Of a stretch of 54,550 bases of DNA, positions 26,345 to 52,524 are shown in pieces. The translations under genes were made by a program, and so were the position numbers. The DNA is from an uncultured virus (IMG/VR IMGVR_UViG_3300031951_000043) (taxonomy: Duplodnaviria > Heunggongvirae > Uroviricota > Caudoviricetes): IMG/VR virus record IMGVR_UViG_3300031951_000043. One strand, 5' to 3'. How positions within the stretch are numbered: the first letter of the stretch is position 1; each line of letters starts with the position of its first letter. The notes beneath the pieces were generated by a model. The model did not search any database. It was not told the origin of the DNA and was given only the letters and a program-made list of their open reading frames with translations.

Positions 26345-26365
26345 TAAGTTTTATATTTTTAATAA

Positions 26366-26403
26366 AAATTCCCCCACTAGTTTTTAGCTAATTGGGGGAA
26401 TTT
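26366..26403. terminator. bidirectional intrinsic terminator
   Basis: aaattccccca...tgggggaattt 11-bp GC-rich stem between convergent genes. Confidence 0.8.
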
Positions 26404-26416
26404 ACTATTAAAAAAT

Positions 26417-26998: not shown

Positions 26999-26999
26999 G

Positions 27000-27698: not shown

Positions 27699-27702
27699 TT
27701 TT

Positions 27703-31972: not shown

Positions 31973-32807
31973 TTTTAAGTAAATTAAGTAACTCTTTTAT
32001 TGATAAACCCTCTCTATTAGCCATTTTCTTTAAAGACTTCATATTCTTCATAAGAATTTTGCTAGCAGTTTTTTGTTCTTTAGGTCTTACATCATAATCA
32101 TCAACATATTTTTTAGTTAAGATGTCTTCAACCATTTTAACCATTTTTTCTTTTTGTTTTTCAGAAAGTGTCATTCTATCCACAAAACCTTCTTTATTTT
32201 TTATGCTATTAGGAGCTTTTTTTGTTTTATTACCCGAAGGGTCTTTACCAAATTGTTTTGTTCTTTTTTTAGCTTCATCTGATTCTAAACCCATTTTTTC
32301 TAAATGTTTTTTAGTTTGTTTACCACTCATATTTTTTGTTTCATCATATCCGAAAGCATCTGAAAAATCGGTTTCCGTTATTTCGCCCTCATTATAATAT
32401 GTTCTAAATCCTCGAAGAAGTGGATCATTTGTTTGTCTTGTTGCTGGAATTGTCTGATCAGTTGTTTTTCTTGGATGTTGTGTTAAATCCAAAATAGGAA
32501 TTTTTGAAGAAGATAATGTCCCATCCGCATTTATAAATTCTTCAAGCTCATGTTTATCTTTTATTTTAATTAATTCAAATTTTTTCTTAATGTCGTCTTT
32601 TGAATATTTTTTCTTTGATTTAGCGATTTCATATATTAATGATTTAATTTTTGGTAAATCTGAGGTTGGAAAATCGATTTTTACATCATTTTTTCTAGCC
32701 TCACTTATTGTCGTCTCAACAGAAAAATATAAAGAAATTCTTTCTTTATTCTCTTTTAAGAAGAAATAATAAGGTTTTATAAAATATTCTTTGTTTGTAT
32801 GAATCAT
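31962..32807 (-). CDS. hypothetical protein (281 aa)
   Basis: ORF after the ATATTTAT motif. Confidence 0.75.
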   Translation of the reverse strand: MIHTNKEYFIKPYYFFLKENKERISLYFSVETTISEARKNDVKIDFPTSDLPKIKSLIYEIAKSKKKYSKDDIKKKFELIKIKDKHELEEFINADGTLSSSKIPILDLTQHPRKTTDQTIPATRQTNDPLLRGFRTYYNEGEITETDFSDAFGYDETKNMSGKQTKKHLEKMGLESDEAKKRTKQFGKDPSGNKTKKAPNSIKNKEGFVDRMTLSEKQKEKMVKMVEDILTKKYVDDYDVRPKEQKTASKILMKNMKSLKKMANREGLSIKELLNLLKNEQ

Positions 32808-32875
32808 TTTTCTTTTTAATTAATAAATATCATTCACTTTATATTTATCTATAAATACAAGAAAAAACACTAAAT

Positions 32876-34741
32876 ATGGCACAACAAAATATAAATCAAC
32901 ACGTTTTTGATAAATTTTATTTATCGCCAATTAATGGAAATATGGATTTAAGTTTAGCGACAAATAATAATTATAATGAAGAGATTATATTTTCAAATGA
33001 AGTAATTGCATATCTTGATGGTAATAGACTTCCATTACAATTCGATATTAATGATTTGGATTCTAACCCAGAATATACATTAATTTATAAACAATATAAT
33101 CCAAATAATGTGTTATTATCAACAAATTATTGGAATCCAAATAATTTGGTTTTAACTTGTTCTACCATGTTTAACTTATGTGATATTGGTTTAACTGGAA
33201 CAGATAATGGTTTGGTTGACCAAATGACCGGAGAAACAATAACCGTAACAAATGGTTTATTGCCGGATGTTGATAAATTTAATAGGTTAATGTTTGACAG
33301 AAGAATGAAATTGTTTCAGGTAACAGGATATACTAGTTCACGAAATGAAAGATTTTCTGGCTATTCTGCGACAACATTATATGAGGTGGTTTCAAAGACA
33401 GGTACAACTGAAGGAGTTTATCATGAGCTTTATGGTGGTTTCTATCAAGGATTTTATAAACTATTTGGTTATGATTATCAAACAATGCCAACTAGAATGC
33501 CTAAAGGATGGACGGTTGAGTTGATGTTAAAACCTCGACTATACCCCGAATATTTTCCATCTAGTGGGGAAACAACTCTCAATGGGTATTATCCTGAAAA
33601 TAGTAATATGTTTTTTTATATGGGGACTAGAGCAGAAAATAAATATTATCATTATGCGGATGGTTCTCCTGTGTCAGATTCCGGGTATACTAGAGCAACA
33701 TCTGGTTTAACTTGTTTAAAAACCTGTGCTTGCTCAAATACTGCGGTAACAAATTCTGATTGTATTGAAGTTTATCCACCATCAGCGGTAACTGTTGACC
33801 ATTCTTATGGTGGTTGTGGTTACTATAATGAAGTTGTTTTAGAACCGGAATTAGACCCCGCATGGGATAGTATATCAAATGCAATTTCGCTGAAGTTTTG
33901 TGGCAATTTATCAAATCCTAAACTCGGTGTTAAGGTATTAAGGTTCGTTGGGGATTGTGTTGTTACCGGAAGTTGTGAAACTACTGGTACTACATATACA
34001 ACAGGATACACCGTTACAGAATATTGTTCCCCAAATGGAATTTATGATATTTGTCCATCGGGTAGTTCTTTTGTACAGGTAGAACATTGGGTACAAATTG
34101 ATGTTGTCTTTGAAAGGAATGCTTGGATGGATGAATGTGATTTAATTTATAAAGGAGGATTGGGTTCAATAACAAAATTTGAATATTTAGATTCACTTTT
34201 AGATAATTCTGTAGCGTTGGTTTCACCACCTATAACTCATCAACAAACAACCCCAGAACAAATAGAAATTGTAAAGTTAAATGAAGAATGGTTGCTTGAG
34301 AAGAAGTATAGAATGGGAACCTTAAAGTTTTATGTAAATGGTAAATTATTCTACACAATAGAAGATTTTGAAGAAATAATCCCAAGAGGTGAAAATACTA
34401 GGAAAGAAAGACAAATCGGTGTACCGTTTAATATATCGGTTGGGGGCGGCACTCAAGGATTACACGAAGCATTAATTTTTACTGGGTGTGTAACTGGTTT
34501 AACAACAACATATAAACAAGACCCAGAATTAGTACCTAACCAAATTTTAAGTGCGACAACATTATCTGGGTTATCAACAAATATTTTAATTGAACCCAAT
34601 TTTGCGGGTAATTTTGAAGGAGCAATTGCTCAATTTAGAATGTATATAGAACCATTAAGTGCTGCACAAATCCAACATAATTTTAGAATTTTAAAAGATA
34701 AGTTTTTACTATTCGATTATTTTTGCGATACTTGTAATTGA
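32876..34741 (+). CDS. putative structural protein with a LamG/concanavalin-like fold interrupted by a Cys/Thr-rich insert
   Basis: GWTVELMLKP, LKFYVNGK, FEGAIAQFRMYIEPLSAAQI. Confidence 0.6.
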   Translation: MAQQNINQHVFDKFYLSPINGNMDLSLATNNNYNEEIIFSNEVIAYLDGNRLPLQFDINDLDSNPEYTLIYKQYNPNNVLLSTNYWNPNNLVLTCSTMFNLCDIGLTGTDNGLVDQMTGETITVTNGLLPDVDKFNRLMFDRRMKLFQVTGYTSSRNERFSGYSATTLYEVVSKTGTTEGVYHELYGGFYQGFYKLFGYDYQTMPTRMPKGWTVELMLKPRLYPEYFPSSGETTLNGYYPENSNMFFYMGTRAENKYYHYADGSPVSDSGYTRATSGLTCLKTCACSNTAVTNSDCIEVYPPSAVTVDHSYGGCGYYNEVVLEPELDPAWDSISNAISLKFCGNLSNPKLGVKVLRFVGDCVVTGSCETTGTTYTTGYTVTEYCSPNGIYDICPSGSSFVQVEHWVQIDVVFERNAWMDECDLIYKGGLGSITKFEYLDSLLDNSVALVSPPITHQQTTPEQIEIVKLNEEWLLEKKYRMGTLKFYVNGKLFYTIEDFEEIIPRGENTRKERQIGVPFNISVGGGTQGLHEALIFTGCVTGLTTTYKQDPELVPNQILSATTLSGLSTNILIEPNFAGNFEGAIAQFRMYIEPLSAAQIQHNFRILKDKFLLFDYFCDTCN

Positions 34742-34754
34742 TATCATTATTAAA

Positions 34755-34937
34755 ATGAGTTTTAACAAAAAAATTATTACTAAAGAAAAATTAATTGAAG
34801 CTCTTAATAGTGAGATTTCATTAGAGAAATTTTTTTCTGCGGATTCAATAGTTTTTAAAGATGATTTATCTCATTATGCTTTTGGGTTATTTAAAGAAGG
34901 ATTCTCAAAAGAAGAAATTTTTAAAAAAATCTTGTAA
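34755..34937 (+). CDS. hypothetical protein (60 aa)
   Basis: ORF filling the intergenic gap. Confidence 0.6.
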   Translation: MSFNKKIITKEKLIEALNSEISLEKFFSADSIVFKDDLSHYAFGLFKEGFSKEEIFKKIL

Positions 34938-34954
34938 ATAGTTGATTACTACGT

Positions 34955-34984
34955 ATTATGAGTTAGTTTTAAATAACTCATAAT
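34955..34984. promoter_or_regulatory. perfect 11-bp inverted repeat upstream of the glycosylation operon
   Basis: attatgagtta-gttttaaa-taactcataat, ending 4 nt before ATG 34989. Confidence 0.55.
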
Positions 34985-34988
34985 TCAC

Positions 34989-37721
34989 ATGGAAAAAAAA
35001 CTAAATATTTTAGCACACGCCTCTTTTATTGGTAAAACCGGTTATGCTAATCATGCTAAATCATTTTTTTGCGCGTTAAATAAGTATGCTAATGTTAAAG
35101 TTAGAAATCTGACAGTAGGTGATAGTTGGTGTGGATTATCGGAAAAACCTCATGATAAAGAAGAGTATTTTACCGATGAAATGCGTAATATGCTTATACT
35201 GCAAACATTATACGAACAAGATAATACAAGAAAAGATTATCCAATATACGGTTACGATGGGTCTTTCATTCCTGATATTCATATCGTTTTAAATGATGTT
35301 AATAACCCATATTTTTATGATAACTATGATGGATATCGCATAGCTTATAATGTTTGGGAATCAACGGAATACCCAAAAGATTTTTTTGAAAGATTATTTT
35401 ATTTTCATGAGGTTTGGGTACCATCTAAATGGCAAAAAGATAATTTAATTAAACAAGGTTACCCAAAGGAAAGAATTTCGGTTGTTCCAGAAGGTGTTGA
35501 CCCTGAAGTTTTTAAACCAACAAATGAAATTGATTTATCAGAAAAGTTTACATTTTTACTTTTTGGTAGGTGGGAATATAGAAAATCAACAAGTGAAATA
35601 ATTAGAGCGTTTAATGAAGAATTTAAAAATGAGGATGTTAACTTAGTTGTTTGTGCAAATAATCCATTTGCTAATGATGGGTTTAAAACAACTGAAGAAA
35701 GAATAATTGCAAATGGTTTGGAAAATAAAAATCTTAAAATAGTTAATTTTCCAACTAGAGAAGAATATATTAATTATTTAAAAAATGGTCATGTTTTTAT
35801 TTCATGTGCTAGAAGTGAGGGGTGGAATCTACCTTTAATAGAAGCAATGGCTTGTGGTACGCCATCAATTTATTCAAACTGGGGAGCACAACTTGAATTT
35901 GCTGATGGATTAGGAATTCCTGTTAAAGTTACTGATTTTGTTTCAGCTAAAAACCAAGATAATTCATTTGTTGGCGATTATATAGAACCAGATTTTAACG
36001 ATTTGAAATTAAAAATGAGAATGGTCTATAATGATTATAAATCATTTAAAGAAAATGCTTTATTAGAATCTGAAACAATTCACAGAAATTTTAATTGGGA
36101 TTTGGTGGCTAAAAATGCTAATAATATTTTACAAAAAAAGGTAAATGACTTTGTTTTTGTTACTACCGGTAACGAAAATTATATGCCTCTTATTGAATGT
36201 TTAGTTAAGTCTTTAAATGAGTTTTCAAAATTTAAAATTATTGTTTATGGGATAAATTGTGATGTACCATTTGATTATCCAAATTTAATAAAAAGAAGAT
36301 TAAATATTGAAGAATACTCAGAACATGATAGGTGGTTTTGGAAGCAATACGCATGTATTGAGTCAATTAACGAATCATTTGAAAATTTTGTTTGGGTTGA
36401 TGGGGACGTTGTTGCAAATTTTAATATTGATAATATAATCAATTATTTCCCTTATGTTGGGAATTATCCGCTATCTGACATACACAGACAAAAAGAATTC
36501 TATGGATTTTTTTATGAAAATGGTGTTAAATATGAGCAACTATTTAATGAAAATCTTAGTAAATACTTAAATGTTACACCACATTTACCATTTATGCACG
36601 TTTGTCTTTTCATTTACAATAAAACCTGCAAATGGTTTTTTGATGAGATTATAAACCTCTATAAATCAACAGATTTAAATAAATATAGGCATTTATTCTT
36701 ATGGAATGATGAAGGTGCTGATAATGCAATTAGATCGAAGTTTAATTTAAAAAACCATTTACCGTTATCTAATTTTGATGTTTCATCATATGATGGCGAA
36801 TCATATGAGTTTATTAATAACCAACTATCTGATTTTTATACATTTTGGGAGAAAGATGGTCCATATAATTTTAATAAAATTTATGGACTTCAATATATTC
36901 CTGAAAATAAAAAAGATATTATCTACTTCCACGGTAACAAAAATGTTGACGCAGCAAATAAAATGATTGATTTTATTAAAATAAAAAGAGACAATTCTTT
37001 TTACGAATCAAATAATTTTTATACTTCAAAAAATGTAATAACAGATTTTAGTGATATAAAAAATATTGAGGGCGGAACTATTTGGGTTGCTGAAAATTAC
37101 GGTTGGTCACACGCAATATATCATGAAATTTATAACTTACAGGATTACTATTTAAGTAGAAAAAAACAAATAAATGATGGGGATATTGTTGTTGATTTAG
37201 GAGGTAATATTGGTATCTTCAATAGATGGGCTTATTCACAAGGAGCGTCTAAAGTTATCTCATTTGAACCAGATAGAAGATATTTTGAATTATTGAAGAA
37301 AAACACAAGTCCTAATTCAATTCTTTTTAATGCGGCGATGTCTGATAGGATTGGGGAGTTGAGTCTATTTGAGAGCGACCATTTGGGTGGTTCAAATATA
37401 TTTGGTGTGCCTAGTAACACAAAAAATTACAAGGTCCGGACTTATACATTAGATTTTTTATTTGATACAGATTTAATTACTCACATTGACTTTTTAAAGG
37501 TTGACGTTGAGGGTGCAGAACATCTAATTTTTAAAGGAATTAGCGATAACAATTTATCTAAAGTTAAAACTATTTCAATGGAATATCATCACTCACATTT
37601 TAATTTTGATGAAAAATTACGTGATGATTTTATTAATAGATTTGTTAGTCTTGGCTTCAATTCTTATCTTTTATTTATGGGGACAAATAATGCATTACAA
37701 ATGATATATTTTTATAGATAA
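34989..37721 (+). CDS. trifunctional protein: GT4 + GT-A glycosyltransferase + FkbM methyltransferase
   Basis: RSEGWNLPLIEAMACG; WVDGD...WNDE...FHG; VVDLGGNIG...FLKVDVEGAE. Confidence 0.85.
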   Translation: MEKKLNILAHASFIGKTGYANHAKSFFCALNKYANVKVRNLTVGDSWCGLSEKPHDKEEYFTDEMRNMLILQTLYEQDNTRKDYPIYGYDGSFIPDIHIVLNDVNNPYFYDNYDGYRIAYNVWESTEYPKDFFERLFYFHEVWVPSKWQKDNLIKQGYPKERISVVPEGVDPEVFKPTNEIDLSEKFTFLLFGRWEYRKSTSEIIRAFNEEFKNEDVNLVVCANNPFANDGFKTTEERIIANGLENKNLKIVNFPTREEYINYLKNGHVFISCARSEGWNLPLIEAMACGTPSIYSNWGAQLEFADGLGIPVKVTDFVSAKNQDNSFVGDYIEPDFNDLKLKMRMVYNDYKSFKENALLESETIHRNFNWDLVAKNANNILQKKVNDFVFVTTGNENYMPLIECLVKSLNEFSKFKIIVYGINCDVPFDYPNLIKRRLNIEEYSEHDRWFWKQYACIESINESFENFVWVDGDVVANFNIDNIINYFPYVGNYPLSDIHRQKEFYGFFYENGVKYEQLFNENLSKYLNVTPHLPFMHVCLFIYNKTCKWFFDEIINLYKSTDLNKYRHLFLWNDEGADNAIRSKFNLKNHLPLSNFDVSSYDGESYEFINNQLSDFYTFWEKDGPYNFNKIYGLQYIPENKKDIIYFHGNKNVDAANKMIDFIKIKRDNSFYESNNFYTSKNVITDFSDIKNIEGGTIWVAENYGWSHAIYHEIYNLQDYYLSRKKQINDGDIVVDLGGNIGIFNRWAYSQGASKVISFEPDRRYFELLKKNTSPNSILFNAAMSDRIGELSLFESDHLGGSNIFGVPSNTKNYKVRTYTLDFLFDTDLITHIDFLKVDVEGAEHLIFKGISDNNLSKVKTISMEYHHSHFNFDEKLRDDFINRFVSLGFNSYLLFMGTNNALQMIYFYR

Positions 37722-40456
37722 TGGCGCACGTAGAACAAAGAAATTTTTGCATTAAAGTAAAAGAAAAGTTTCCTGATTTTTTTAAAAATAAAAAAGTCTT
37801 GGATATTGGTTCATTAGACATAAATGGTAGTAATCGAGATTTATTTGAGGATTGTGATTATATAGGATTAGACGTTGGTGAAGGTAGGAATGTCGATGTG
37901 GTATCTGTTGGTCATTTATATGATGCTCCAGATAGTTTTTTCGATACGATTATTTCTACTGAAGTCTTTGAACACGATATGTTCTATGAGGAAACCGTTA
38001 AAAACATAATGAGAATGTTAAAACCCGGTGGCTTATTTGTATTTACCTGTGCCGCACCGGGAAGACCGGAGCATGGAACTAGACGATGTGGTGAAGAGTG
38101 CGCTCCATTATTGATACAAATTTCAGAAGAATGGGCTGACTATTATAAAAATTTAGATAGCCATGATTTTAAAATTATACCAAGTTTTAATGAAACATTT
38201 CCCGATGGTTATTTTGAATTAAATAATTTATATCTAGAAATACCATCTGATTTGTATTTTTATGGTATAAAAGGTGGTGAGAAATATTACATAAATAATA
38301 TTGTTACAGAATACAATAAACCAGAATTTAATGAACATATTTTTGTTATTGATTCTTGGCCTGACGATGAAAAAAAAGAAAATGATTTAGTTAATTTAAT
38401 TAAAAAATTAAAATCATTTAATATTCAAATTTTACTAGCCGGACATTATCCGATTAAAGAAGAAATACAAAAAATGGTGGATTATTATATTTTTGATAAA
38501 AATAATCCATTATTACTTTCTAGTGAATTTAATTCGTTTGATGTTGGTAGTGGAAGATGGGCAGAAACTTCAGAATATAGAATAGATATGTCAATGGTCT
38601 TTCATCATGATTATGCAATATGGGAAACAATGAGAACGGCATTTAATTTTTGTAAATTTTTAAATAAAAAATACATTCATTTCTTAGAATATGATAATAA
38701 TCCAAATGTTTTCCAATATAAACAATGTTTTATTGAACAAATAATTAATCATGATGCAATCATATACGAATATAGTTTAGATTCAGCAAAAAATTTAAAT
38801 CCATATTGTGCCACTTTTATTTTTTCAATAAAAACAGATATCGCATTAAAATTAATTTCACAAATAAATTCAAAAACGGAATATTTTACTAACAAACCTA
38901 AAGGTTGGCAGTTAGAGCGAGTTTTTTTAGAAAAATTAACTAATGTTACAAATAACATAAAACTTTCAGAATATATTGCAAATGAAAATGAATTAAATAC
39001 TCAAGCAGTTTGGAATAGAGATGGTATAGTTAAAAATGGTGCAATATTTCAATCCTACTTAGCTGTTGATTATAAAAATCATTTATATTTAGAACTAATA
39101 TCTGGTTTTGATAGTAAAAAAGCTGATAAAGATTATATTATAGAGATTGAGTATCTTTCAACAAGAAAGTTTATAACATTAAAAAAAGATAACATGATGA
39201 TTGTTCCGTTAGGGGAATATCACGTTGGAGGTTATGTTAAATTATATTATGAGGGGGTTTTAATTTTTAATGAATTTCTATATAAATCAGCAAAAAAATT
39301 TAGAGAAGTGAGTTCAATTATTTTAAAAAATGAGTCACTACCTGAACCCAAAATTAATATTAATTTTATTGATGGGGCGTTTGTTGAAATATTAGATGAT
39401 ATTGATTCTAAATATGATGTTGAATTTATAGATAAGCAAACAAATCGTGTAATTTTTGGAACAACAATAAAAAATAATTGTTGGGCTAAATGTAATAAAA
39501 AATATTTTATTGATTGGAAAATCAAAATTAAATCACAATACGGTAAAGAATATACATATGACTTAGATTTAAAAAATCAAAATGTTTTGATTTCATTTGA
39601 GTCTAAATCCTTAGGGGATACTTTAGCGTGGATGTCATATGTTGAGGCTTTCGGTATCAAACACGGATGTAATGTTATCTGCTCAACATTCCACAATGAT
39701 TTATTTGTAAACCAATATAAAAATATTAAATTCGTTAAACCGGGAAATACAGCTAGTAATATAATTGCTCTTTATAGATTAGGTGTTTTTTATAATGGAA
39801 ATAATTTTAATGAGGAATATCATTTAATGGACCCAAAAAAGGAACCACTATTAAAAATAGCTTCCGACATATTGGGATTAGAATATAAAGAATTAAAACC
39901 AAGTCTTCCCGTTTTATCAATAAAAAAAGAAAAACGAGTTTGTATAGCAACACATTCAACCGCACAATGCAAGTATTGGAATAACCCAACTGGTTGGCAA
40001 GAAGTTGTTGATTTCTTGATAGAAAATGGATATGAAGTTAGATTGTTGTCAATTGAAGAAGATGGATATATGGGTAATAAAAATCCTATCGGTGTTACAC
40101 AACAACCAAAAGGTGAAATAACAGATGTCCTTAAAACATTACAGGAATCGGAATTTTTTATTGGTATTAGTAGCGGACTAAGCTGGTTAGCTTGGGCATC
40201 TGGAATTAAAACAATACTAATATCCGGTTTTACTGATAAATATTTAGAACCATTAAATGATATTTATCGGGTAATAAATAAAGAAGTATGTCATGGGTGT
40301 TGGCACACACATAAATTTGACGCTGGCGACTGGAATTGGTGTCCAATACACAAAGGAACATCTAGAGAATTTGAATGCTCTAAATCAATAACCGCAGACC
40401 AAGTTATTAATTTAATTAAAAATGAAAATTTATGTTCAAATTGCGTCATATCGTGA
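37721..40456 (+). CDS. SAM methyltransferase + putative GT-A domain + TibC/Aah-like protein O-heptosyltransferase
   Basis: VLDIGSLDINGS; HFLEYD; SLGDTLAW...HSTAQCKYWNNPTGW...FIGISSGLSWLAW...CHGCW...WCP.HKGT..FECSKSIT (four-Cys iron finger). Confidence 0.85.
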   Translation: MAHVEQRNFCIKVKEKFPDFFKNKKVLDIGSLDINGSNRDLFEDCDYIGLDVGEGRNVDVVSVGHLYDAPDSFFDTIISTEVFEHDMFYEETVKNIMRMLKPGGLFVFTCAAPGRPEHGTRRCGEECAPLLIQISEEWADYYKNLDSHDFKIIPSFNETFPDGYFELNNLYLEIPSDLYFYGIKGGEKYYINNIVTEYNKPEFNEHIFVIDSWPDDEKKENDLVNLIKKLKSFNIQILLAGHYPIKEEIQKMVDYYIFDKNNPLLLSSEFNSFDVGSGRWAETSEYRIDMSMVFHHDYAIWETMRTAFNFCKFLNKKYIHFLEYDNNPNVFQYKQCFIEQIINHDAIIYEYSLDSAKNLNPYCATFIFSIKTDIALKLISQINSKTEYFTNKPKGWQLERVFLEKLTNVTNNIKLSEYIANENELNTQAVWNRDGIVKNGAIFQSYLAVDYKNHLYLELISGFDSKKADKDYIIEIEYLSTRKFITLKKDNMMIVPLGEYHVGGYVKLYYEGVLIFNEFLYKSAKKFREVSSIILKNESLPEPKININFIDGAFVEILDDIDSKYDVEFIDKQTNRVIFGTTIKNNCWAKCNKKYFIDWKIKIKSQYGKEYTYDLDLKNQNVLISFESKSLGDTLAWMSYVEAFGIKHGCNVICSTFHNDLFVNQYKNIKFVKPGNTASNIIALYRLGVFYNGNNFNEEYHLMDPKKEPLLKIASDILGLEYKELKPSLPVLSIKKEKRVCIATHSTAQCKYWNNPTGWQEVVDFLIENGYEVRLLSIEEDGYMGNKNPIGVTQQPKGEITDVLKTLQESEFFIGISSGLSWLAWASGIKTILISGFTDKYLEPLNDIYRVINKEVCHGCWHTHKFDAGDWNWCPIHKGTSREFECSKSITADQVINLIKNENLCSNCVIS

Positions 40457-41669
40457 CCCGCAATTAATTCCGACAATTAAAAATTTATTAGAAAATTCAA
40501 AAAATCCAGAAAATTTAAGGATTGGTATTGCTAGACAATATCATCCAGAAGATAAATTTGATGATTTGTCTGAGTATGATAACGATGAACGATTTAGAAT
40601 TTTAAATATTCCATATGAAGAATCTTTAGGTGTTTGTTGGGCTAGACATTTGATTCAACAACTTTATGATAATGAGGAATATACCCTTCAGATAGATTCT
40701 CACATGAGATTTGAAAAAGATTGGGATGAAACATTAATTAATATGCTTGAAGGATTAAAAAAAGATGGTTATAGAAAGCCACTATTAACAGCATATGTAC
40801 CATCATTTAATCCTGAAAATGACCCTAATGATAGAGTCAAGGTTCCTTGGCGGATGGTTTTTGATAAGTTTACACCAGAAGGTGTTGTATTTTTTCTTCC
40901 TGAGGTTATCCAAAATTGGAAACAATTAGATAAACCAATTCCTGCTAGATTTTACTCTGCACATTTTTGTTTTACAATTGGACAATTTGCGTTAGAGGCG
41001 CAACATGACCCCGAATATTATTTTCATGGTGAAGAGATTTCTATCGCAGCAAGAGCATATACACATGGATATGATTTATTTCATCCGCATAAGGTCATTC
41101 TTTGGCATGAATATACTAGAAAGGGTAGAACAAAGCATTGGGACGATATACAAAATTGGTCAGCTTTAAACAAAGAATCACACAGAAGAAATAGAGTATT
41201 ATTTGGTATGGATAATGAAATTCAAAACATTGATTTTGGTAGATTTGGTTTTGGTAAATTAAGAACTTTAAGAGATTATGAAAAATATGTTGGTTTATTA
41301 TTTGAAAAACGTGCTATACAGCAATACACGTTAGATAAAAAATATGCACCAAATCCATATACATTTAATGATGAAAATGAGTGGAAAAATAGTTTTGCAT
41401 CAAAGTTTAAATATGATATAAAAGTTCCAAAAATTAATTTACAAGAAAAAGATTATGAGTTTTTTGCTATTGCTTTTCACGACAAAAAAGATGAAACGTT
41501 ATACAGAAAAGATGCAGACAAGATTGAAATTTTTAATTCTTTTAAGACAGTTGATGACTTTATAACAATTAGGAGAGAATTTAATAATGAACAAATTCCG
41601 GCGTATTGGGTTGTTTGGCCTTATAGTAAAACAAAAGGATGGTGCGATAGATTGGTAGGTGAAATTTAA
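40422..41669 (+). CDS. GT60-like (Skp1 GlcNAc-transferase-like) polypeptide glycosyltransferase
   Basis: IYVQIASYRD, GVCWAR, LQIDSHMRF..WD, FHGEE...R.YTHGYD. Confidence 0.8.
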   Translation: MKIYVQIASYRDPQLIPTIKNLLENSKNPENLRIGIARQYHPEDKFDDLSEYDNDERFRILNIPYEESLGVCWARHLIQQLYDNEEYTLQIDSHMRFEKDWDETLINMLEGLKKDGYRKPLLTAYVPSFNPENDPNDRVKVPWRMVFDKFTPEGVVFFLPEVIQNWKQLDKPIPARFYSAHFCFTIGQFALEAQHDPEYYFHGEEISIAARAYTHGYDLFHPHKVILWHEYTRKGRTKHWDDIQNWSALNKESHRRNRVLFGMDNEIQNIDFGRFGFGKLRTLRDYEKYVGLLFEKRAIQQYTLDKKYAPNPYTFNDENEWKNSFASKFKYDIKVPKINLQEKDYEFFAIAFHDKKDETLYRKDADKIEIFNSFKTVDDFITIRREFNNEQIPAYWVVWPYSKTKGWCDRLVGEI

Positions 41670-41701
41670 TTATTTGATATATTTATTATTAAAAATAATA
41701 A

Positions 41702-42067
41702 ATGGAATTCTTTATTAAAAAAAACGCAACACTTCCTGTTTTAAAAATGCAAGTTTTAAATAATGGTAGGCATGAATATAAAACATTTATGAATTTACTT
41801 GAAACTGCGACAATTTCATTTACAATGATTAATGAAGCTACTGGAATACCAAAAATAGCAAATGCTCCAGCATATATAACAGATAAAATTTTTGAAAATC
41901 CTAATGCTGATAGGGAATATTATGTTTATTATCTTTTTTCACAGAAAGACACTAATAAGGTAGGACGTTATCAGGGTCAATTTGTACTAGCCTTGAATAA
42001 CGGGACATTAATTTGTCCAATCAGAGAGGATTTATACATAAATATAACGGATAGTACAATTTCATAA
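41702..42067 (+). CDS. Ig-like (BppU-like) baseplate/fibre adaptor protein
   Basis: FFIKKNATLP.L ... Y.F...DT..GRY.GQF; paralog of the next gene. Confidence 0.6.
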   Translation: MEFFIKKNATLPVLKMQVLNNGRHEYKTFMNLLETATISFTMINEATGIPKIANAPAYITDKIFENPNADREYYVYYLFSQKDTNKVGRYQGQFVLALNNGTLICPIREDLYINITDSTIS

Positions 42068-42069
42068 AA

Positions 42070-42570
42070 ATGAATTTTTTTATAAAAAAAAATGCAACAC
42101 TACCATTTTTGGTATTAAAAATAATTAAAGGTGAGGTAGATGATTTCTATGAATATTTTGATTCATTATCTTCAACCACAATTAATTTCTCAATGAGAGA
42201 TACTGAAACAAAAAAATTAAAAATAGTTAATGATTCATGTAACATAGAAAAAAATGAAAATGAAGAAAGAGATGAATATTTAATTTATTATCAATTTAAA
42301 AATCACCATACCAAATTAATAGGTCGCTACGAAGCGGAATTTAATATTCAAGAAAATCAAAAAAAAATAGGTTTACCATTAAAAAATAAACTCTATATTA
42401 ATGTTGTTGATAGTTTTGCGGCAAATAATCTTTCATATAGTTCTACTACAGCAACAATAGTAAGTAATAATTGTTGTGTAACATCTATAACACAAGAAAC
42501 TTTCTTCTTATTAACAGAAGATAATATAATACTTGCAACTGAAGATGGTGAAAATATTCTATGGATATAA
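42070..42570 (+). CDS. Ig-like (BppU-like) adaptor paralog with C-terminal LLTED..LATED motif
   Basis: Same N-terminus as 41702. Confidence 0.6.
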   Translation: MNFFIKKNATLPFLVLKIIKGEVDDFYEYFDSLSSTTINFSMRDTETKKLKIVNDSCNIEKNENEERDEYLIYYQFKNHHTKLIGRYEAEFNIQENQKKIGLPLKNKLYINVVDSFAANNLSYSSTTATIVSNNCCVTSITQETFFLLTEDNIILATEDGENILWI

Positions 42571-42591
42571 TATTTATATTTAAAAAAGATT

Positions 42592-43860
42592 ATGGCTAAT
42601 AAAAAAATTAGTAACTTACCTGAGTATAACACACCACAACCAAATGATGTGTTACCAATTGTTAATGTTGCTAATAGCGTAACACAAAAAGTACTATTTT
42701 CAGCAATTAGTCAAACAATAACATCAGGATTAGTTGATGTTTTTGTGACTGGTGGTACTTATTCAGCTGGAACAGCAACATTTATAAATAATACTGGCGG
42801 AACGTTTAGTGTTAGTGGCTTTACCGATAGTCAAGCAGGTTCCTCAGGAACATCAGGGACAAGTGGCTCATCTGGCTCTAGCGGAACATCAGGGATAAGC
42901 GGCTCTTCAGGAAGTTCTGGAACATCTGGTACAAGTGGTTCATCAGGAAGTTCTGGTACAAGTGGTTCATCTGGTAGTTCAGGAACATCTGGAACAAGTG
43001 GTTCATCAGGAAGTTCTGGTACAAGTGGTTCGTCAGGTTCTTCAGGAACAAGTGGTTCATCTGGTAGTTCAGGAACATCTGGAACAAGTGGTTCATCAGG
43101 AAGTTCTGGTACAAGTGGTTCGTCAGGAAGTTCTGGTACAAGTGGTTCGTCAGGTTCTTCAGGAACAAGTGGTTCATCAGGAAGTTCTGGTTCTTCAGGT
43201 ACAAGTGGAATAAATGGTTCTTCTGGAACATCAGGAACAAGTGGTTCATCTGGTAGTTCAGGAACATCTGGAACAAGTGGTTCATCAGGAAGTTCTGGTA
43301 CAAGTGGTTCATCAGGAAATTCTGGTTCTTCAGGAACAAGTGGTTCATCTGGTAGTTCAGGAACATCAGGAACAAGTGGTTCATCAGGAAGTTCTGGCAC
43401 AAGTGGTTCGTCAGGTTCTTCAGGAACAAGTGGTTCATCTGGTAGTTCAGGAACATCTGGAACAAGTGGTTCATCAGGAAGTTCTGGTACAAGTGGTTCG
43501 TCAGGTTCTTCTGGTACAAGTGGTTCATCAGGAAGTTCTGGTTCTTCAGGTACAAGTGGAATAAATGGTTCTTCTGGAACATCTGGTACAAGTGGTTCTT
43601 CAGGAAGTTCTGGTACAAGTGGTTCATCAGGTTCTAGCGGAACATCTGGCACAAGTGGTTCTTCAGGAAGTTCAAGTGTTACTAATTTTCCGGTAACTTT
43701 TAATAATTCTGGAAGTGGAAATGCATCTGGGGTTAATTTTGATGGTTCTGTTGCACGAACTGTTAGTTTTAATACAATAGGTGCAAATAAAGTAATAACC
43801 TCTGGTACCGCTGCTCCGACCGGAGGTAATGATGGAGACATCTATTTACAATTTACATAA
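42592..43860 (+). CDS. collagen-like (Gly-X-Y, X/Y = Ser/Thr) tail fibre protein
   Basis: N-terminal KKISNLP fibre-type motif, 93 Gly-X-Y triplets, C-terminal APTGGNDGDIY. Confidence 0.85.
   Translation: MANKKISNLPEYNTPQPNDVLPIVNVANSVTQKVLFSAISQTITSGLVDVFVTGGTYSAGTATFINNTGGTFSVSGFTDSQAGSSGTSGTSGSSGSSGTSGISGSSGSSGTSGTSGSSGSSGTSGSSGSSGTSGTSGSSGSSGTSGSSGSSGTSGSSGSSGTSGTSGSSGSSGTSGSSGSSGTSGSSGSSGTSGSSGSSGSSGTSGINGSSGTSGTSGSSGSSGTSGTSGSSGSSGTSGSSGNSGSSGTSGSSGSSGTSGTSGSSGSSGTSGSSGSSGTSGSSGSSGTSGTSGSSGSSGTSGSSGSSGTSGSSGSSGSSGTSGINGSSGTSGTSGSSGSSGTSGSSGSSGTSGTSGSSGSSSVTNFPVTFNNSGSGNASGVNFDGSVARTVSFNTIGANKVITSGTAAPTGGNDGDIYLQFT
42838..43674 (+). repeat. 9-bp-period coding repeat (GSS/GTS triplets) with higher-order duplications
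   Basis: 837 nt = 93 triplets; the GIN triplet recurs 351 nt apart (43207, 43558). Confidence 0.95.
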
Positions 43861-43869
43861 TCGCTCAAT

Positions 43870-44049
43870 ATGATTAAAATAGAAAAAAATACAGAAGTAG
43901 AATCAAACATAAACTACATAACTTGTGAAAGTGGGGAATTTAACGATACCGATTTAGTTAAGTGTAGACTTAAAACCAAACTTTCAGAAAACACCGTTAT
44001 GTTTCTAGTATCACAAATAAAAAACACAACCAATGAAAGTAGCATTTGA
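43870..44049 (+). CDS. small hypothetical protein (59 aa), absent from the ORF track
   Basis: ATG 43870 MIKIEKNTEV...NESSI TGA fills the gap and overlaps the next start. Confidence 0.55.
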   Translation: MIKIEKNTEVESNINYITCESGEFNDTDLVKCRLKTKLSENTVMFLVSQIKNTTNESSI

Positions 44050-46174
44050 ACAGATATTTAATGGGTCGCTAGACCAAGTTGCAATAGGTGGTGCTTATGA
44101 CGCAACAAAAATAAACAGAGGTAAGCATACAGGACAATTCAATCTTGGAGCAAACGCGATTGATAAATTCGTAGGTCCAGCACCTGTTGGTGTTGCTAAC
44201 TTCGGTCAATCATCATTAGCTATACCCTCTCAGTTTGTTCATCCAGTCAAAATAACAGACGATTTATTTTGGATTTTTGGTGCGGATGTTGCTAGTGCAG
44301 GAGCTACACGTAGAGTCCAATTATGGACTTTTGTCCCTTCTACCAATACGTACACTTTTATAGGCGCAATTACTTGTACATTTCCTACCGCTACTGCTCA
44401 TACAGTAAGAGGCATTCGTGTTATTCTTGAAAACTACACAACAGGTACAGTAGGTGTAAGCGGTACGGCAGTAACAGGTTCGGGAACCACTTGGAATACA
44501 GACAGACTTTCTGTAGGTTCACGCATAGGGTTTGGTTCTACCAATCCTAATAATATTACACAGTGGTTTCAAATATCTGCTATTGGTTCTGATACAACAA
44601 TCACGTTGACAACTTCAGCAGGAACAGTAGCATCAGGGACACCTTATGTCATTCAGGATTTAATGATTGTGCAAGCTACAACCAACGCAACTGTTACTAA
44701 TGGTGGATTGTTTGTGACAAAAGGGTTACAATATGGCGATTTCCAAAATCCAGCAATAGTCATTCCTGCTGCTACTACCGTTGATAGGATAAAGGCGGTG
44801 TATTGGTTGAAAGATGCGGCCACTATAACGAATGACGTTATTGGTGGATGTGCCTTAGGAGATAGAGATAGTTGGACTCAACAATACATCTATTCTACTG
44901 AAGGTGCATCAACTACATTAGCGATTTACCGATATAACATTAGAGCGGCTCTTACTCCAAGTGCGGGTGCATTTACACTTACTGGGACAGATATTGTTAT
45001 TACGGGAAACCAAGCAGTAACGGGTAACATTTCTCAGTTTAACAATGGTAGAGTGGCTACATTGCAACACGGAGCGGGCAGTGGTGTTCCTTCTTTATAC
45101 CTATTCACTACTACTCGTATTATTCGTGTTCCTATTTCAAACATAACAGCAGGTAACACTTCCTTTGTTGCAGATACTATGAGCGAAGTCGTTCCGGGCG
45201 GTACTGAAACAAATGTTGCTATTGGCACATTTGCTACATTTGATGTTGCTCAATCAATGGATAAACTTGTTATCGCTGGGGGGGCAGGCACAGTATCATT
45301 GTACATCACCGATTATTACACAGGGGGTCAGCAAATGGATAGGAGATCAAATATCATATCAACACAAATGGTTTCATCACTGCGTGACGTTGACAGTCCA
45401 ATTTATGTTCACCAAATTCCAAGCCAAGCGCCTTCTGTTTGGGTTGAAGATGGATGGTTATTTTGGATGTATGGTACGACCACAACAACTAATACAAATG
45501 CTTTAAGTGTATATCCACTTGCAGCAGATTTGGATTTTCAAGCTGAAGTAAACAACAGGATAATACTACCTAAAATAACATTGGGTGCTACACCCGCAAA
45601 ATTATACAGAGTTGCTACCACCAGTATGGGAAATGTAGGCGATGTTACAATGGGCGTATCGCCTGATTTTTACAGAATTCAGGTTCGCACATCAGGTATT
45701 GATAACAATAGTGGAGGATGGACTGATATATCACAAGACGGTGATTTATCAGGACTTGGCACACCTTCAACTATCCAATTTGCTTTGCAGTTTAGAACTG
45801 CGGGTGTAATTATGTTACCTGCAAGGGTTTTAAGTTTGGCTTTATTGTACGAAACTGACGATGCTCTACCTTCTCAATATCGTTGGAATTACGCCGATTT
45901 CAACACTTCTAACGGAACATTTGCGTGGGTTCAAGCAATTCTTTTTGGAACGACGATTGGAACACACACCATCAACATTTATCGTGCCGATACGGATGCC
46001 TTGGTGCTTACACAAGCAAGCACATCAACTACCAATGGTACATTCGAGAATTGGGATGGTAGTGCGTGGGTAGCTGGTTTAGGTGCCGATACTGTAGGAA
46101 GAAGGAGAAGGTTTGTTCCTTCAGGTTCATTACCCGGATCAGTTGATTTATATGCTAAAATAACAATTGCTTAA
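44033..46174 (+). CDS. putative tail/receptor-binding structural protein (713 aa)
   Basis: Thr/Gly/Ala-rich beta protein, GTVGVSGTAVTGSGTTW fibre-type motif, higher GC than neighbours. Confidence 0.65.
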   Translation: MKVAFEQIFNGSLDQVAIGGAYDATKINRGKHTGQFNLGANAIDKFVGPAPVGVANFGQSSLAIPSQFVHPVKITDDLFWIFGADVASAGATRRVQLWTFVPSTNTYTFIGAITCTFPTATAHTVRGIRVILENYTTGTVGVSGTAVTGSGTTWNTDRLSVGSRIGFGSTNPNNITQWFQISAIGSDTTITLTTSAGTVASGTPYVIQDLMIVQATTNATVTNGGLFVTKGLQYGDFQNPAIVIPAATTVDRIKAVYWLKDAATITNDVIGGCALGDRDSWTQQYIYSTEGASTTLAIYRYNIRAALTPSAGAFTLTGTDIVITGNQAVTGNISQFNNGRVATLQHGAGSGVPSLYLFTTTRIIRVPISNITAGNTSFVADTMSEVVPGGTETNVAIGTFATFDVAQSMDKLVIAGGAGTVSLYITDYYTGGQQMDRRSNIISTQMVSSLRDVDSPIYVHQIPSQAPSVWVEDGWLFWMYGTTTTTNTNALSVYPLAADLDFQAEVNNRIILPKITLGATPAKLYRVATTSMGNVGDVTMGVSPDFYRIQVRTSGIDNNSGGWTDISQDGDLSGLGTPSTIQFALQFRTAGVIMLPARVLSLALLYETDDALPSQYRWNYADFNTSNGTFAWVQAILFGTTIGTHTINIYRADTDALVLTQASTSTTNGTFENWDGSAWVAGLGADTVGRRRRFVPSGSLPGSVDLYAKITIA

Positions 46175-46476
46175 TGAGTTTACAATTAACATTCGGTGGA
46201 GCAGAGACTGTTCTGGTACGAGATACCGGAACAGCTAATGCTGTGCAAGGATTTGTTAGTGAAGAAATTGTTGTTTCTAAGAACGTAACTGCACTACCTA
46301 CCAACTTTTTATTCCAATTATATGAATACATTCAGGCTCCACTAGTATCAATAACGGGTACAGTTGCTTGGATAAAAGTAAGTGGAGTTTGGAAGCAAGC
46401 CATAGTATGGTTAAAGGTAGGTGGTGTTTGGAAGATAACAACCCCGTTTATTAAAGTAAGTGGAGTTTGGAAGTGA
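46174..46476 (+). CDS. small fibre-associated protein with three KV(S/G)GVWK repeats
   Basis: WIKVSGVWK / WLKVGGVWK / FIKVSGVWK. Confidence 0.7.
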   Translation: MSLQLTFGGAETVLVRDTGTANAVQGFVSEEIVVSKNVTALPTNFLFQLYEYIQAPLVSITGTVAWIKVSGVWKQAIVWLKVGGVWKITTPFIKVSGVWK

Positions 46477-46569
46477 TTATTGACAATACTAATCATAATT
46501 CTTATTTTTAAGAAAAAGGTAAATGTCATTATGTATGACAGCAAATAAACCACTTAAATTTATAAACTT

Positions 46570-49443
46570 ATGATTAGTCAAGAAGAAATTAAGTCCTTTT
46601 TGGAAGGAAGTGACCCAGAAGAGTTTATTGTATCCGTAGAGTTCGATTACGTATCAAATTCGATTTTTAAAGTCAAAGAATTACCTAATGGAGATAAAAA
46701 AATACTCCAAGATAGATTTACCCCATTTGCGTGGGTTGGTGATTTAAAAGGTTTAAATTTTTATGAGAACTCAAAACAAAAACAAAAAGAAGCAATAAAT
46801 AAACATGGTATTGTTATTGAGAAATTAAGAACTGATAGTAACCAGAGGCTTGAAAATGGTTTAAATTTTATTGTTAAATCATTAAAAGGTTACAGACAGT
46901 TAAAACAATTTTTTAGTGAAGGTGGTTTAGATATTTGGGGTTCAGCTAAAGATAAGGTTCTTATGTTATCTCCAGTAGAACAATACTTAATCTCAAAAGA
47001 AAAAAGACTATTTAAAGGGTTTGATGAATATAATGATATTACTAGACTAGTATTTGACTTAGAAACAACATCACTCGAACCAAAAGACGGTAGAATCTTT
47101 ATGATTGGTATAAAGACCAATAAAGGTTTTCATAAGGTTATTGAGTGTTCTGATGATGACGCGGAGAGAAAAGCTATTTTAGAATTTTTTAAAACAATTG
47201 ACGATATAAAACCAACAATTATTGCTGGATATAACTCAGCAAACTTCGATTGGAACTGGATATTTGAGCGTTGCAAGATTTTAGGAATAGATATTAAGCA
47301 ATATTGTAAGACCTTACATACTAAAGTTAGTATTACAAAAAATGAACAAGTTTTAAAGCTTGGAAATGAAGTTGAGCGTTACAGTCAGGTAACAATGTGG
47401 GGTTATAATGTTATTGATATTATTCACTCTGTTAGACGAGCACAAGCAATTAATTCAGGTATTAAATCTGCGGGTCTTAAATATATAACAAAATATATTC
47501 AAGCAGAAGCAAAAGACCGTGTTTATATCGACCATGACAAAATTGGACCAATGTATAAAAATAATGAAGAATATTGGTTAAATATAACAAATGGTCGGTA
47601 TAGAAAAGCGGACAATCCTGAATTTAGTGATTTGGATAAGAAATTTCCGGATGTTTATATAAAGACAAATGGTGTTGATATTGTTGAGCGGTATCTAGAT
47701 GATGACTTGGAAGAAACCCTTAAGGTTGACGATGAATTTAATCAAGGTTCATTTTTGCTAGCATCATTGGTACCGACCACTTATGAAAGAATTTCTACAA
47801 TGGGTACAGCTTCCTTATGGAAAATGATTATGCTTGCGTGGTCATATAAACATAAATTAGCAATACCTCAAAAAAATAGTAAACAAGATTTTGTTGGTGG
47901 TCTATCGAGACTACTTACGGTAGGCTACTCAAATGATGTGTTAAAACTAGACTATTCTTCGCTTTATCCATCAATTCAGTTGACGCATGATATTTTTCCT
48001 GATTGTGATATTACAGGTGTTATGAAAGGTCTTCTATCTTATTTTAGAGATGCTAGAATTCTATATAAGAATTTAGCTAGCGAACTAGCAGAAACAGACC
48101 CAAAAAAATCAAAATCTTATGATAGAAAACAACTCCCAATTAAGATATTCATCAACTCAATGTTTGGCGCATTAAGTGCTCCGCAAGTGTTCCAATGGGG
48201 TGATATGGACAAAGGAGAACAGATTACTTGTACCGGTAGACAATACTTGCGACAAATGATAAAATTCTTCACAAAAAGAGGATATAAAATTCTAGTATTG
48301 GATACTGACGGTTGCAATTTTAGTTTACCTGAAGGTGTTGAATCAAAAAAATATGTTGGGAAAGGTCTAAACTGGAAAGTTAAAAAGGACAAAGAATATG
48401 TCGGCTATGATGCTGATGTTGCTGAATTTAATGACACTTTTATGTCAGGTCCAATGGCTTTAGATTGTGATGGTACATGGGTTTCTTGTATAAACTTATC
48501 AAGAAAGAACTACGCTACTTTGGATGGTAAGGGAAAAATTAAATTGACCGGAAATACAATTAAAAGTAAAAAACTTCCCCTATATATTGAAGGATTCTTG
48601 GATATCGGAATTAAATTACTCTTAGAAGGTAAGGGACAAGAATTTGTTGAGTATTATTATGAATATTTAGGAAAAATCTATAACAAAGAAATCCCACTTT
48701 CTAAAATTGCGCAACGAGCTAAAGTAAAATTATCGATTGAGGAATATATTGAACGTTCCAAAAAGAAGACAAAATCAGGTGGGGCGATGAGTAGAATGGC
48801 ACACATGGAATTAGCAATAAAGCATGGTTTAAATGTTAATTTAGGTGATGTTATTTATTATGTTAATAATGGGGTTAAAGCATCCGATGGTGATGTTCAA
48901 AAAGTCTCTAAAACCGGAATTAAAGAGAATCCGACAAAGGATGATATGAAAAAATATATATCTAAGAATGGTTGGACTGAAGGTCATGGTACGGATAATT
49001 GGTTACCGCCCGGAAATAATAATGATTGGTCTTCTGTTAGTTTAGAAGAGGTGTATGAAACAGCAATTAAAACGGATGTTAAAATAAATTGTTATTTATT
49101 AGACCCAAAAACATTAGAGCAAAACGAGAATTTAACCGGTGAATACAACGCAGCTAGAGCAATAACAACATTTAACAAACGAATCGAACCTCTATTGATT
49201 GTTTTTGATGATGAAGTTAGAAATAATCTATTGGTTGATAATCCGGAAAAACGTGGATTATTCACTAGAGCACAATGTGAGTTAATTAATGGTAAACCTT
49301 TTGAAGAAGGGGACCAAGATACTATCGAGGAGTTGTTGACAATAAGTGATGGGGAAATTAAATTCTGGAATAAAGTTAATATGGACCCGAATTATATCTA
49401 TAAATTAGCTCAACCGGGGTGGGAAGAAAAAATATCAACTTAA
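46570..49443 (+). CDS. polB: family B DNA polymerase
   Basis: ExoI FDLET, ExoII YNSANFD, motif A DYSSLYPS, motif B KIFINSMFG, motif C DTDG. Confidence 0.95.
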   Translation: MISQEEIKSFLEGSDPEEFIVSVEFDYVSNSIFKVKELPNGDKKILQDRFTPFAWVGDLKGLNFYENSKQKQKEAINKHGIVIEKLRTDSNQRLENGLNFIVKSLKGYRQLKQFFSEGGLDIWGSAKDKVLMLSPVEQYLISKEKRLFKGFDEYNDITRLVFDLETTSLEPKDGRIFMIGIKTNKGFHKVIECSDDDAERKAILEFFKTIDDIKPTIIAGYNSANFDWNWIFERCKILGIDIKQYCKTLHTKVSITKNEQVLKLGNEVERYSQVTMWGYNVIDIIHSVRRAQAINSGIKSAGLKYITKYIQAEAKDRVYIDHDKIGPMYKNNEEYWLNITNGRYRKADNPEFSDLDKKFPDVYIKTNGVDIVERYLDDDLEETLKVDDEFNQGSFLLASLVPTTYERISTMGTASLWKMIMLAWSYKHKLAIPQKNSKQDFVGGLSRLLTVGYSNDVLKLDYSSLYPSIQLTHDIFPDCDITGVMKGLLSYFRDARILYKNLASELAETDPKKSKSYDRKQLPIKIFINSMFGALSAPQVFQWGDMDKGEQITCTGRQYLRQMIKFFTKRGYKILVLDTDGCNFSLPEGVESKKYVGKGLNWKVKKDKEYVGYDADVAEFNDTFMSGPMALDCDGTWVSCINLSRKNYATLDGKGKIKLTGNTIKSKKLPLYIEGFLDIGIKLLLEGKGQEFVEYYYEYLGKIYNKEIPLSKIAQRAKVKLSIEEYIERSKKKTKSGGAMSRMAHMELAIKHGLNVNLGDVIYYVNNGVKASDGDVQKVSKTGIKENPTKDDMKKYISKNGWTEGHGTDNWLPPGNNNDWSSVSLEEVYETAIKTDVKINCYLLDPKTLEQNENLTGEYNAARAITTFNKRIEPLLIVFDDEVRNNLLVDNPEKRGLFTRAQCELINGKPFEEGDQDTIEELLTISDGEIKFWNKVNMDPNYIYKLAQPGWEEKIST

Positions 49444-52468: not shown

Positions 52469-52524
52469 GACCAAAATAATTGTTACCTTTATTATGTGAA
52501 AGTCAACAATTATAAATAGTTTGA

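Follow-up and report, generated by a model that had tools for sequence, protein, structure and literature searches.

A TibC/Aah-like enzyme gene and a Gly-X-Ser collagen-like fibre in a T4-like freshwater jumbo phage: a putative virion glycosylation locus

The closest described relatives of the system treated here are the bacterial autotransporter heptosyltransferases (BAHT) of E. coli, in the pairs TibC-TibA and Aah-AIDA-I (family TIGR04414; structures 4RAP and 4RB4; PMC4358343). TibC modifies Ser, not Thr; D110, T226, K230 and W305 are its catalytic or contact residues, Arg286 selects adenine and an iron finger recognises the protein substrate (PMC4358343). We analysed a 54,550-nucleotide (nt) stretch (the window) of virus record IMGVR_UViG_3300031951_000043, from an uncultured T4-like freshwater jumbo phage, in which a TibC/Aah-type glycosyltransferase (GT) of family GT9 is encoded upstream of a fibre with a collagen-like Ser/Thr repeat. 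The phage enzyme has the whole catalytic domain in common with BAHT, N-terminal barrel region included, with the catalytic Asp, the phosphate and sugar contacts and the four-Cys finger, and its gene also lies beside that of a Ser-rich filamentous protein. Unlike BAHT, it is phage encoded and fused to a methyltransferase (MTase) and an uncharacterised domain, Arg286 is lost and the thumb is shortened; its proposed acceptor is a Gly-X-Ser collagen-like repeat instead of a beta-helical autotransporter, and candidate extension and methylation enzymes are linked to it.

A second enzyme of the locus belongs to GT60 (PF11397 at 258 bits, cut-off 21), the family of Gnt1 of Toxoplasma and Dictyostelium and of the alpha-GlcNAc-transferase that initiates T. 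cruzi mucins (PMC6939170); in relatives, its gene is associated with mucin-like Thr/Pro tracts, and unlike the known GT60s the enzyme is phage encoded and soluble, with Thr/Pro tracts vestigial in this genome. Among glycosylated collagens that lack hydroxyproline, BclA of B. anthracis and the vent-worm cuticle collagen (as cited in PMC11923368) likewise have Gly-X-Y repeats rich in hydroxy amino acids, whose O-glycans are thought to stabilise the helix; these carry Thr at Y and usually Pro at X, whereas here Ser is at Y, Pro is absent and the enzyme family is another. For mycobacteriophages, a coating of the virion by phage-encoded transferases has been proposed (Freeman et al. 2023, as cited in PMC12619734), with glycans on the C termini of capsid and tail-tube proteins; here the proposed site is a long fibre of low complexity, each chain of which offers as many as ~180 hydroxyl sites, and the enzymes are unrelated. 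In gene content alone the phage resembles the moraphages, aquatic jumbo phages with 25 described genomes and predicted Bacteroidota hosts (PMC12619734), with which it shares a T4-like capsid, portal, sheath, PolB, sigma factor, Clp ATPase, PhoH, DnaJ, a peptidase and several GTs; in that paper the words collagen, heptos- and mucin do not occur. Full-text searches of literature outside subscription journals retrieved no paper on a pairing of TibC-like enzymes with collagens, or of GT60 with Thr/Pro proteins, in phages. BAHT enzymes, GT60, glyco-collagens and virion glycans are known kinds, and their combination is a new variant.

Co-occurrence of TibC-like genes and Gly-X-Ser collagens

TibC-like genes track Gly-X-Ser collagens across unrelated capsid lineages. 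In a set of 79 loci picked by the enzyme (from the best 80 of 141, own record excluded), a collagen with Ser/Thr-rich triplets (S/T collagen) was present in 43 and adjacent to the enzyme gene in 32, and a Thr/Pro protein was adjacent in none; five of the collagen-less loci end within ~0.7 kb of the enzyme gene. Ser filled at least half of the Y positions in 41 of 44 non-redundant collagens from these loci, which fits the Ser specificity of TibC. A second set was picked by the collagen and comprised 45 contigs of at least 40 kb from 57 repeat-bearing ones, with the seven shortest and one giant-virus bin left out. TIGR04414 scored above its cut-off in 23 of these 45 contigs and in 7 of the 8 that were at least 90% complete, but in none of 31 controls with Gly-Pro-Gln collagens (contigs of ~25 kb or longer from among 80 matches listed; 0 of 9 complete ones). 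The background was 4 in 50,697 GenBank phage records, and in three of these four at most a few genes separate the enzyme from an S/T collagen.

A third set consisted of 50 contigs selected on GT60 or capsid alone (9 of 80 capsid-picked loci were used, most others lying on short contigs). Both genes were found in 7, the collagen only in 6, the enzyme only in 6 and neither in 31 (Fisher p 0.023), with one single GC-rich match scored as negative and two of the "enzyme only" contigs holding a collagen that the pattern missed. Among contigs of this set of at least 150 kb, three had both and six had neither, three of the six being near-identical. The pair occurs in phages of 66 to 735 kb with capsids ranging from 78% identity to no match. 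It is also present in a cultured virus, the Microcystis phage Mel-JY01 (PP395634.1), in which GT4, middle domain and TibC-like domain are joined in one 1226-aa (amino acids) gene annotated "methyltransferase FkbM"; this fused gene lies two genes from a 202-triplet S/T collagen, and the capsid is 41-47% identical to that of the present phage. The host of Mel-JY01 is known from the GenBank record alone, and a literature search found no paper on the phage.

The association extends to further domains encoded at this locus. GT-A, GT4, FkbM and the middle domain of the 911-aa type were found at most two genes from the TibC-like gene in 36, 37, 37 and 48 of 82 loci, respectively; at most two genes from GT60 they were found in 0, 2, 1 and 0 of 79 loci. 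The initial annotation of this DNA had expected its GT genes to accompany Gly-Ser/Thr repeats, and this held for the TibC-like gene and its GT4, GT-A and FkbM partners but not for GT60.

In cellular genomes, a TibC-like gene lay near the repeat in one contig only among the 122 loci listed, a result of little weight for bacteria. Contig CAZFOG010000090.1, which was assigned to a Nitrospiraceae bin, has a TibC-like gene immediately followed by two S/T collagens; by eye, its other genes are phage-like.

Enzymes and fibre encoded at the locus

The window corresponds to positions 62072-116621 of a 256,029-base virus record with 29.9% GC and an estimated completeness of 85%. T4-like capsid, portal, terminase, sheath, baseplate, sigma factor, Clp ATPase and DnaJ are encoded outside the window (Pfam scan, 132 proteins), and the stretch is present in freshwater runs (the three best) and in several "fungus metagenome" runs. 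The six open reading frames (ORFs) from the 910-aa gene to the fibre were all verified at their coordinates (Table 1) on the plus strand.

Table 1. Coordinates of features in the window
Feature	Position	Strand	Basis or remark
621-aa conserved flanking gene	32876..34741	+	no Thr/Pro tracts; long ones in several relatives' copies
910-aa protein: GT4 (aa 1-385), GT-A fold (aa 388-672), FkbM MTase (aa 690-910)	34989..37721	+	profiles, structure model
911-aa protein: S-adenosylmethionine (SAM) MTase (aa 1-184), virus-specific domain (aa 200-445), TibC/Aah-type GT9	37721..40456	+	
TibC/Aah-like GT9 domain	39338..40453	+	TIGR04414, 4RAP alignment
415-aa GT60 (PF11397), polypeptide GlcNAc-transferase-like	40422..41669	+	conserved residues intact; lineage resident
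ATATTTAT motif, candidate late-promoter element	41679..41686	+	23 nt before first adaptor
121-aa Ig-like beta-sandwich, BppU/baseplate-adaptor-like	41702..42067	+	structure model
166-aa adaptor paralog	42070..42570	+	BppU_N E 0.005; short Thr-rich linker, conserved C-terminal acidic motif
ATATTTAT motif	42570..42577	+	22 nt before fibre gene
422-aa fibre, proposed acceptor	42592..43860	+	N-terminal anchor, collagen-like core, short C-terminal tip
93 Gly-X-Y triplets of the fibre	42838..43674	+	aa 83-361; no Pro or charged residues
713-aa second tail-fibre-like protein	44033..46174	+	same variable slot; phrog_1591, E 1.7e-7

The 911-aa protein scored 302.1 bits with TIGR04414 (curated cut-off 200) and 21 bits with the WaaC-type TIGR02193, and its TibC-like domain matched TibC (4RAP) with a phmmer E of 2.7e-60. 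According to residue numbers counted by hand from the 4RAP alignment, D633, T747, K751 and W822 keep D110, T226, K230 and W305 of TibC, and the predicted iron finger is intact, with C857, C860, C874 and C886 aligned to C339, C342, C358 and C370. S817 stands at the position of P300, as in AAH, the thumb is three residues shorter and F265/V266 read Y/M. In 81 phage TibC-like domains, D110, K230 and W305 are present without exception and the four Cys in 78-79. The class I MTase at the N terminus matched phrog_32762. The domain between the two gave weak GT leads (Atlas WavE 0.92, GT2 0.91), no Pfam GT match and no meaningful PDB match by profile, and from its sequence we regard it as an uncharacterised virus-specific domain, possibly a GT. 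Of the initial annotation of this gene as MTase, GT and TibC/Aah-like enzyme with four Cys, the outer two domains and the Cys residues stood, and the central GT is weakly supported.

Some further observations concern TibC-like genes elsewhere. A quick tree had raised Arg286 loss as a mark of collagen-linked enzymes, and this was weakened by the Arg286-positive contigs G100 (80 matches) and G102 (74), which hold distant S/T collagens. In loci L061, L067, L071 and L079, the neighbourhood of the Arg286-positive genes encodes proteins that carry long tracts of poly-Thr or poly-Ser/Thr, and locus L058 has a protein O-fucosyltransferase-like gene (PF10250).

The 910-aa protein is a GT4 enzyme (PF00534, E 2e-14) with a C-terminal FkbM domain (TIGR01444, 87.5 bits, cut-off 37.7). 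Pfam gave no match for aa 388-672, which AlphaFold models as a GT-A fold (pLDDT 88.5). In this model the domain resembles the GT8/GT24/GT6 group: WbbM was matched with a VIA Z of 15.9 (root-mean-square deviation [rmsd] 3.9, 237 residues aligned), in a tie with LARGE1, LgtC and glycogenin, and a Foldseek comparison with glycogenin gave an E of 1.6e-7. The GT4, GT-A and FkbM assignments of the initial annotation are borne out. The middle domains of the 910-aa and 911-aa proteins showed no detectable relationship to each other. We place the 910-aa protein in the collagen module, where it would probably lengthen and cap the glycan. Ahead of the enzyme operon, at window 34932-34959, inspection by eye shows a sigma70-like pair (TTGTAA-16 nt-TATTAT), which differs from the ATATTTAT before the fibre.

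The fibre repeat matched PF01391 at 141 bits and consists of 53 GSS, 36 GTS, 2 GIN, 1 GIS and 1 GNS triplets, with Ser (53) or Thr (36) at X and Ser in 91 of 93 Y positions, as the initial annotation had read it; the longest Gly-X-Y run in 1000 shuffles of the repeat segment was 11, against the 93 observed. The N terminus of the fibre is common to other fibres of the lineage. Collagens of relatives end in a Peptidase_S74 chaperone in 6 of 7 hand-picked cases and, by motif, in 22 of 90 complete ones; such chaperones are typical of trimeric tail fibres. Two DNA runs contain contigs identical to window 32500-42954 and 43602-47000, short breaks aside; no contig listed from these runs spans the core of the repeat, and the figure of exactly 93 triplets therefore comes from a single assembly. 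In one run, contig depth reached 3308 over the repeat (window 42664-43631) and was ~27 on the flanks, from which similar Gly-Ser/Thr repeats would be very common in that community.

In the peptide (Gly-Pro-Thr)10, galactosylation converts a coil to a triple helix, and glycans can substitute for hydroxyproline in model collagen peptides (PMC11923368). By analogy, glycosylation of Ser might stabilise the helix of the phage fibre likewise.

Two small genes precede that of the fibre, in the order given by the initial annotation, which had called them adaptors; the identity as baseplate adaptors is borderline (Z ~8 and the BppU_N match of Table 1). The first matched the 80alpha baseplate with Z 8.1 (rmsd 3.1, 104 residues aligned) and TP901-1 with Z 7.7-8.0, in a tie with unrelated Ig folds. 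Its domain bears a Thr/Pro tail in many relatives and is without one here. The ATATTTAT motif was found at most 80 nt before 44 ORFs, structural ones included (4.8 expected). In two studies, RNA contigs have their start at 41701 and 41710, just after the ATATTTAT before the first adaptor, which hints weakly at a late transcript. Adaptor and fibre genes are more fully covered by RNA contigs than the enzyme genes, though such contigs cannot rank expression.

GT60 and Thr/Pro tracts

The GT60-like enzyme of the initial annotation was confirmed by its PF11397 match. D92-S93-H94 and E204-E205 are invariant in 58 phage homologs, and we take DSH to be the catalytic motif; by sequence, no solved structure matched. 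GT60 was considered as a partner of the collagen and rejected in that role. Near-complete S/T-collagen records contained it in 0 of 8 cases (5 of 45 contigs in all), it was not found in Mel-JY01 or LR756501, and it lay near the TibC-like gene in just 2 of 82 TibC loci. It follows Thr/Pro tracts instead: 75 of 79 GT60 loci have such a tract, 47 of them next door, and 9 have an S/T collagen, 7 of them adjacent. A strict Thr/Pro pattern was matched in 16 of 18 GT60-positive and in 0 of 16 GT60-negative records, and also in none of five further control records whose GT60 status was not scored. Since the GT60-positive records are mostly of one lineage, this association partly reflects shared ancestry. 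The two positive records missing the strict pattern are RAS14, which has a looser tract, and the present genome, in which one 42-residue Thr/Pro tract and several poly-Thr runs remain elsewhere. Judged by these sequence patterns, GT60 is most likely part of another system, one for Thr-rich stalks.

GT60 is conserved in the lineage, where it stands between the 621-aa gene and the block of adaptor and PolB genes. Here the 911-aa gene overlaps it by 35 nt (the last ~11 codons) on the same strand, and the alignments of most TibC-like homologs end at residues 357-365 of the 372 of the domain. The running of the TibC-like gene into GT60 suggests a recent insertion of the collagen module before a resident GT60.

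Proposed explanation and its alternatives

From the domains, the catalytic residues and the co-occurrence pattern we infer, with moderate confidence, the following acceptor, donor, order of steps, virion location and function. The locus would be the junction of two virion protein-glycosylation modules, A and B, that meet where this T4-like jumbo phage of 256 kb has a variable slot for fibres. Module A would consist of the two long multidomain genes and the Gly-X-Ser fibre. Its TibC/Aah-type GT9 would add the first sugar, from a nucleotide-sugar of the host, to serines of the repeat, most likely the near-invariant Ser at Y; GT4, GT-A and the middle domain of the 911-aa protein would lengthen the glycan, and the two SAM MTases would modify or cap it. 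The glycans may let a proline-free and charge-free, putatively trimeric shaft fold or stay rigid, and may also coat it; the virion shielding and adhesion suggested in the initial annotation are conceivable further roles. Module B would be the resident GT60, which would serve Thr/Pro mucin-like stalks in the lineage and is here left with short Thr tracts on structural proteins. A phage O-glycosylation system aimed at its own Ser/Thr fibre, as first annotated, is supported in this form; the inclusion of GT60 in the same pathway is not. More tentatively, and with clearly less confidence, aquatic phages might run a two-code glycocalyx, in which a TibC branch re-tuned to a donor other than ADP-heptose makes a glycosylation-dependent collagen free of Pro and charge and GT60 coats Thr/Pro stalks; this genome would then be in the middle of a swap from the mucin to the collagen code.

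Several points weigh against module A and B as drawn. V803 replaces the adenine-selecting Arg286 of TibC, so that a feature of ADP-sugar specificity is lost, Arg286 is retained in just 18 of 81 phage TibC-like domains, and the exchange R286A abolishes or strongly lowers TibC activity (PMC4358343). Long S/T collagens without TIGR04414 occur in G009 (148 kb, 84% complete), and G003, with 12 triplets only, lacks TIGR04414 as well; conversely, the 636-kb phage LR756504.1 has a stand-alone TibC-like gene without a Gly-Ser/Thr repeat or Thr/Pro pattern. The fibre of the present phage itself lacks the Peptidase_S74 chaperone. GT60 may have been co-opted for the collagen here, since its gene and that of the TibC-like enzyme overlap and the genome has 0 matches to the strict Thr/Pro pattern. 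Many further GTs encoded elsewhere in the phage could serve other targets. The contigs are mostly fragments and many loci near-duplicates, so the counts overstate independence, and the Gly-Pro-Gln controls are shorter and from other lineages than the S/T-collagen contigs.

The genes gmhA, rfaE (domain II) and epimerase were not found in the genome (85% complete), and no heptose enzymes appeared among the 132 proteins scanned with Pfam beyond the window. Because Arg286 is lost and heptose pathway genes were not found, ADP-heptose is doubtful as the donor; the enzyme family named in the initial annotation stood, and its heptose transfer from ADP-heptose became questionable. Heptose would be slightly the poorer guess, and another sugar slightly the better one. 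No member of the autotransporter family was found among the neighbours or the 132 further proteins (two long proteins and ORFs of <140 aa lay outside the scan). Judged by its sequence, the TibC-like enzyme looks active and BAHT-like, though one defining feature fails.

During infection the enzymes could instead remodel host surface glycans (lipopolysaccharide [LPS], capsule or receptor masking) and co-occur with the fibre only through a shared host-range island. Enzymes that make LPS and polysaccharides commonly have GT9, GT4, GT8-like and FkbM domains, phage GT clusters have been so interpreted (PMC12801897), and Glf, epimerases and GT2 are among the neighbours. We consider this unlikely, since the GT9 falls into TibC/Aah, a protein-modifying subfamily (by the TIGR04414 and TIGR02193 scores), with a protein-recognising iron finger, and the link is specific to Ser-type collagens, not fibres or collagens generally, and persists with the genes >10 kb apart.

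Next comes a single pathway, in the sense of the initial annotation: priming of the collagen would be the work of GT60 (with GlcNAc) or of both enzymes, and the other domains would extend and cap one glycan on the same fibre. The same-strand overlap of the two genes, the 36 Thr at X of the fibre, the S/T collagens adjoining GT60 in 7 of 79 loci and the keeping of an intact GT60 although nearly all Thr/Pro tracts are lost here would all fit. Nevertheless, the absence of GT60 from all 8 near-complete S/T-collagen records, Mel-JY01 and LR756501 and from the neighbourhood of the TibC-like gene in all but 2 of 82 loci makes it quite unlikely, and GT60 could find other acceptors in the poly-Thr tracts of further structural proteins.

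There is only a slim chance that the repeat is glycosylated but forms a disordered or polyproline-II glyco-brush instead of a triple helix, serving as spacer, hydration shell or ice/particle binder. The usual stabilisers (Pro, hydroxyproline or salt-bridge triplets) are indeed missing, and Gly-X-X repeats form polyproline-II bundles in the snow-flea antifreeze protein. Against this stand the strict Gly register, kept over 93 triplets here and hundreds in relatives, and the trimer-type S74 chaperones on the collagens of relatives. Finally, hypermodification of phage DNA by the transferases and methylases is highly improbable: phage GTs are often assigned to DNA (PMC12619734), 2-oxoglutarate (2OG)-Fe(II) oxygenases are frequent neighbours in relatives and a DNA polymerase gene is close by, but both key enzymes are from protein-acting families, and DNA modification would not explain why they occur according to the type of Ser/Thr repeat in the proteins.

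Other genes of the record also point to glycan synthesis. A second cluster on the minus strand (window 13239-28836) encodes two GT2, two GT4-like, GT92, GT15 (Kre2-like) and RXYLT1-like proteins, with a hexapeptide acyltransferase, FkbM and another MTase; several of these families are of eukaryote type. At record positions 185107-187783, GT9-like and sulfotransferase genes and an unassigned 326-aa gene stand among Thr-rich structural genes with poly-Thr runs, a possible third module for a sulfated glycan. Elsewhere in the window are a member (29068-29829) of a multi-copy family with a shared N-terminal leader followed by leucine-rich-repeat-like units (~ten genome copies), the 3' part of a Mom-family gene (PF25680; 2-952, plus strand), what we take to be a PhoH-like gene with an apparent intein (16538-18358, minus strand) and presumably a superoxide-dismutase-like protein (50939-52474, minus strand).

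Among bacterial viruses, few systems with glycosylated virions have been documented, and jumbo-phage GT clusters tend to be assigned to the modification of DNA or of host LPS. If the enzyme-acceptor pairing is widespread, such clusters would gain a concrete target, and the reach of the TibC/Aah family would extend beyond enteric adhesins to the fibres of viruses. Whether a triple helix without proline can be stabilised by Ser glycosylation alone would then become directly testable, a question of relevance to how collagens fold and to recombinant glyco-collagens. The record of the cultured phage Mel-JY01, which holds the pair, puts an experimental test within reach.

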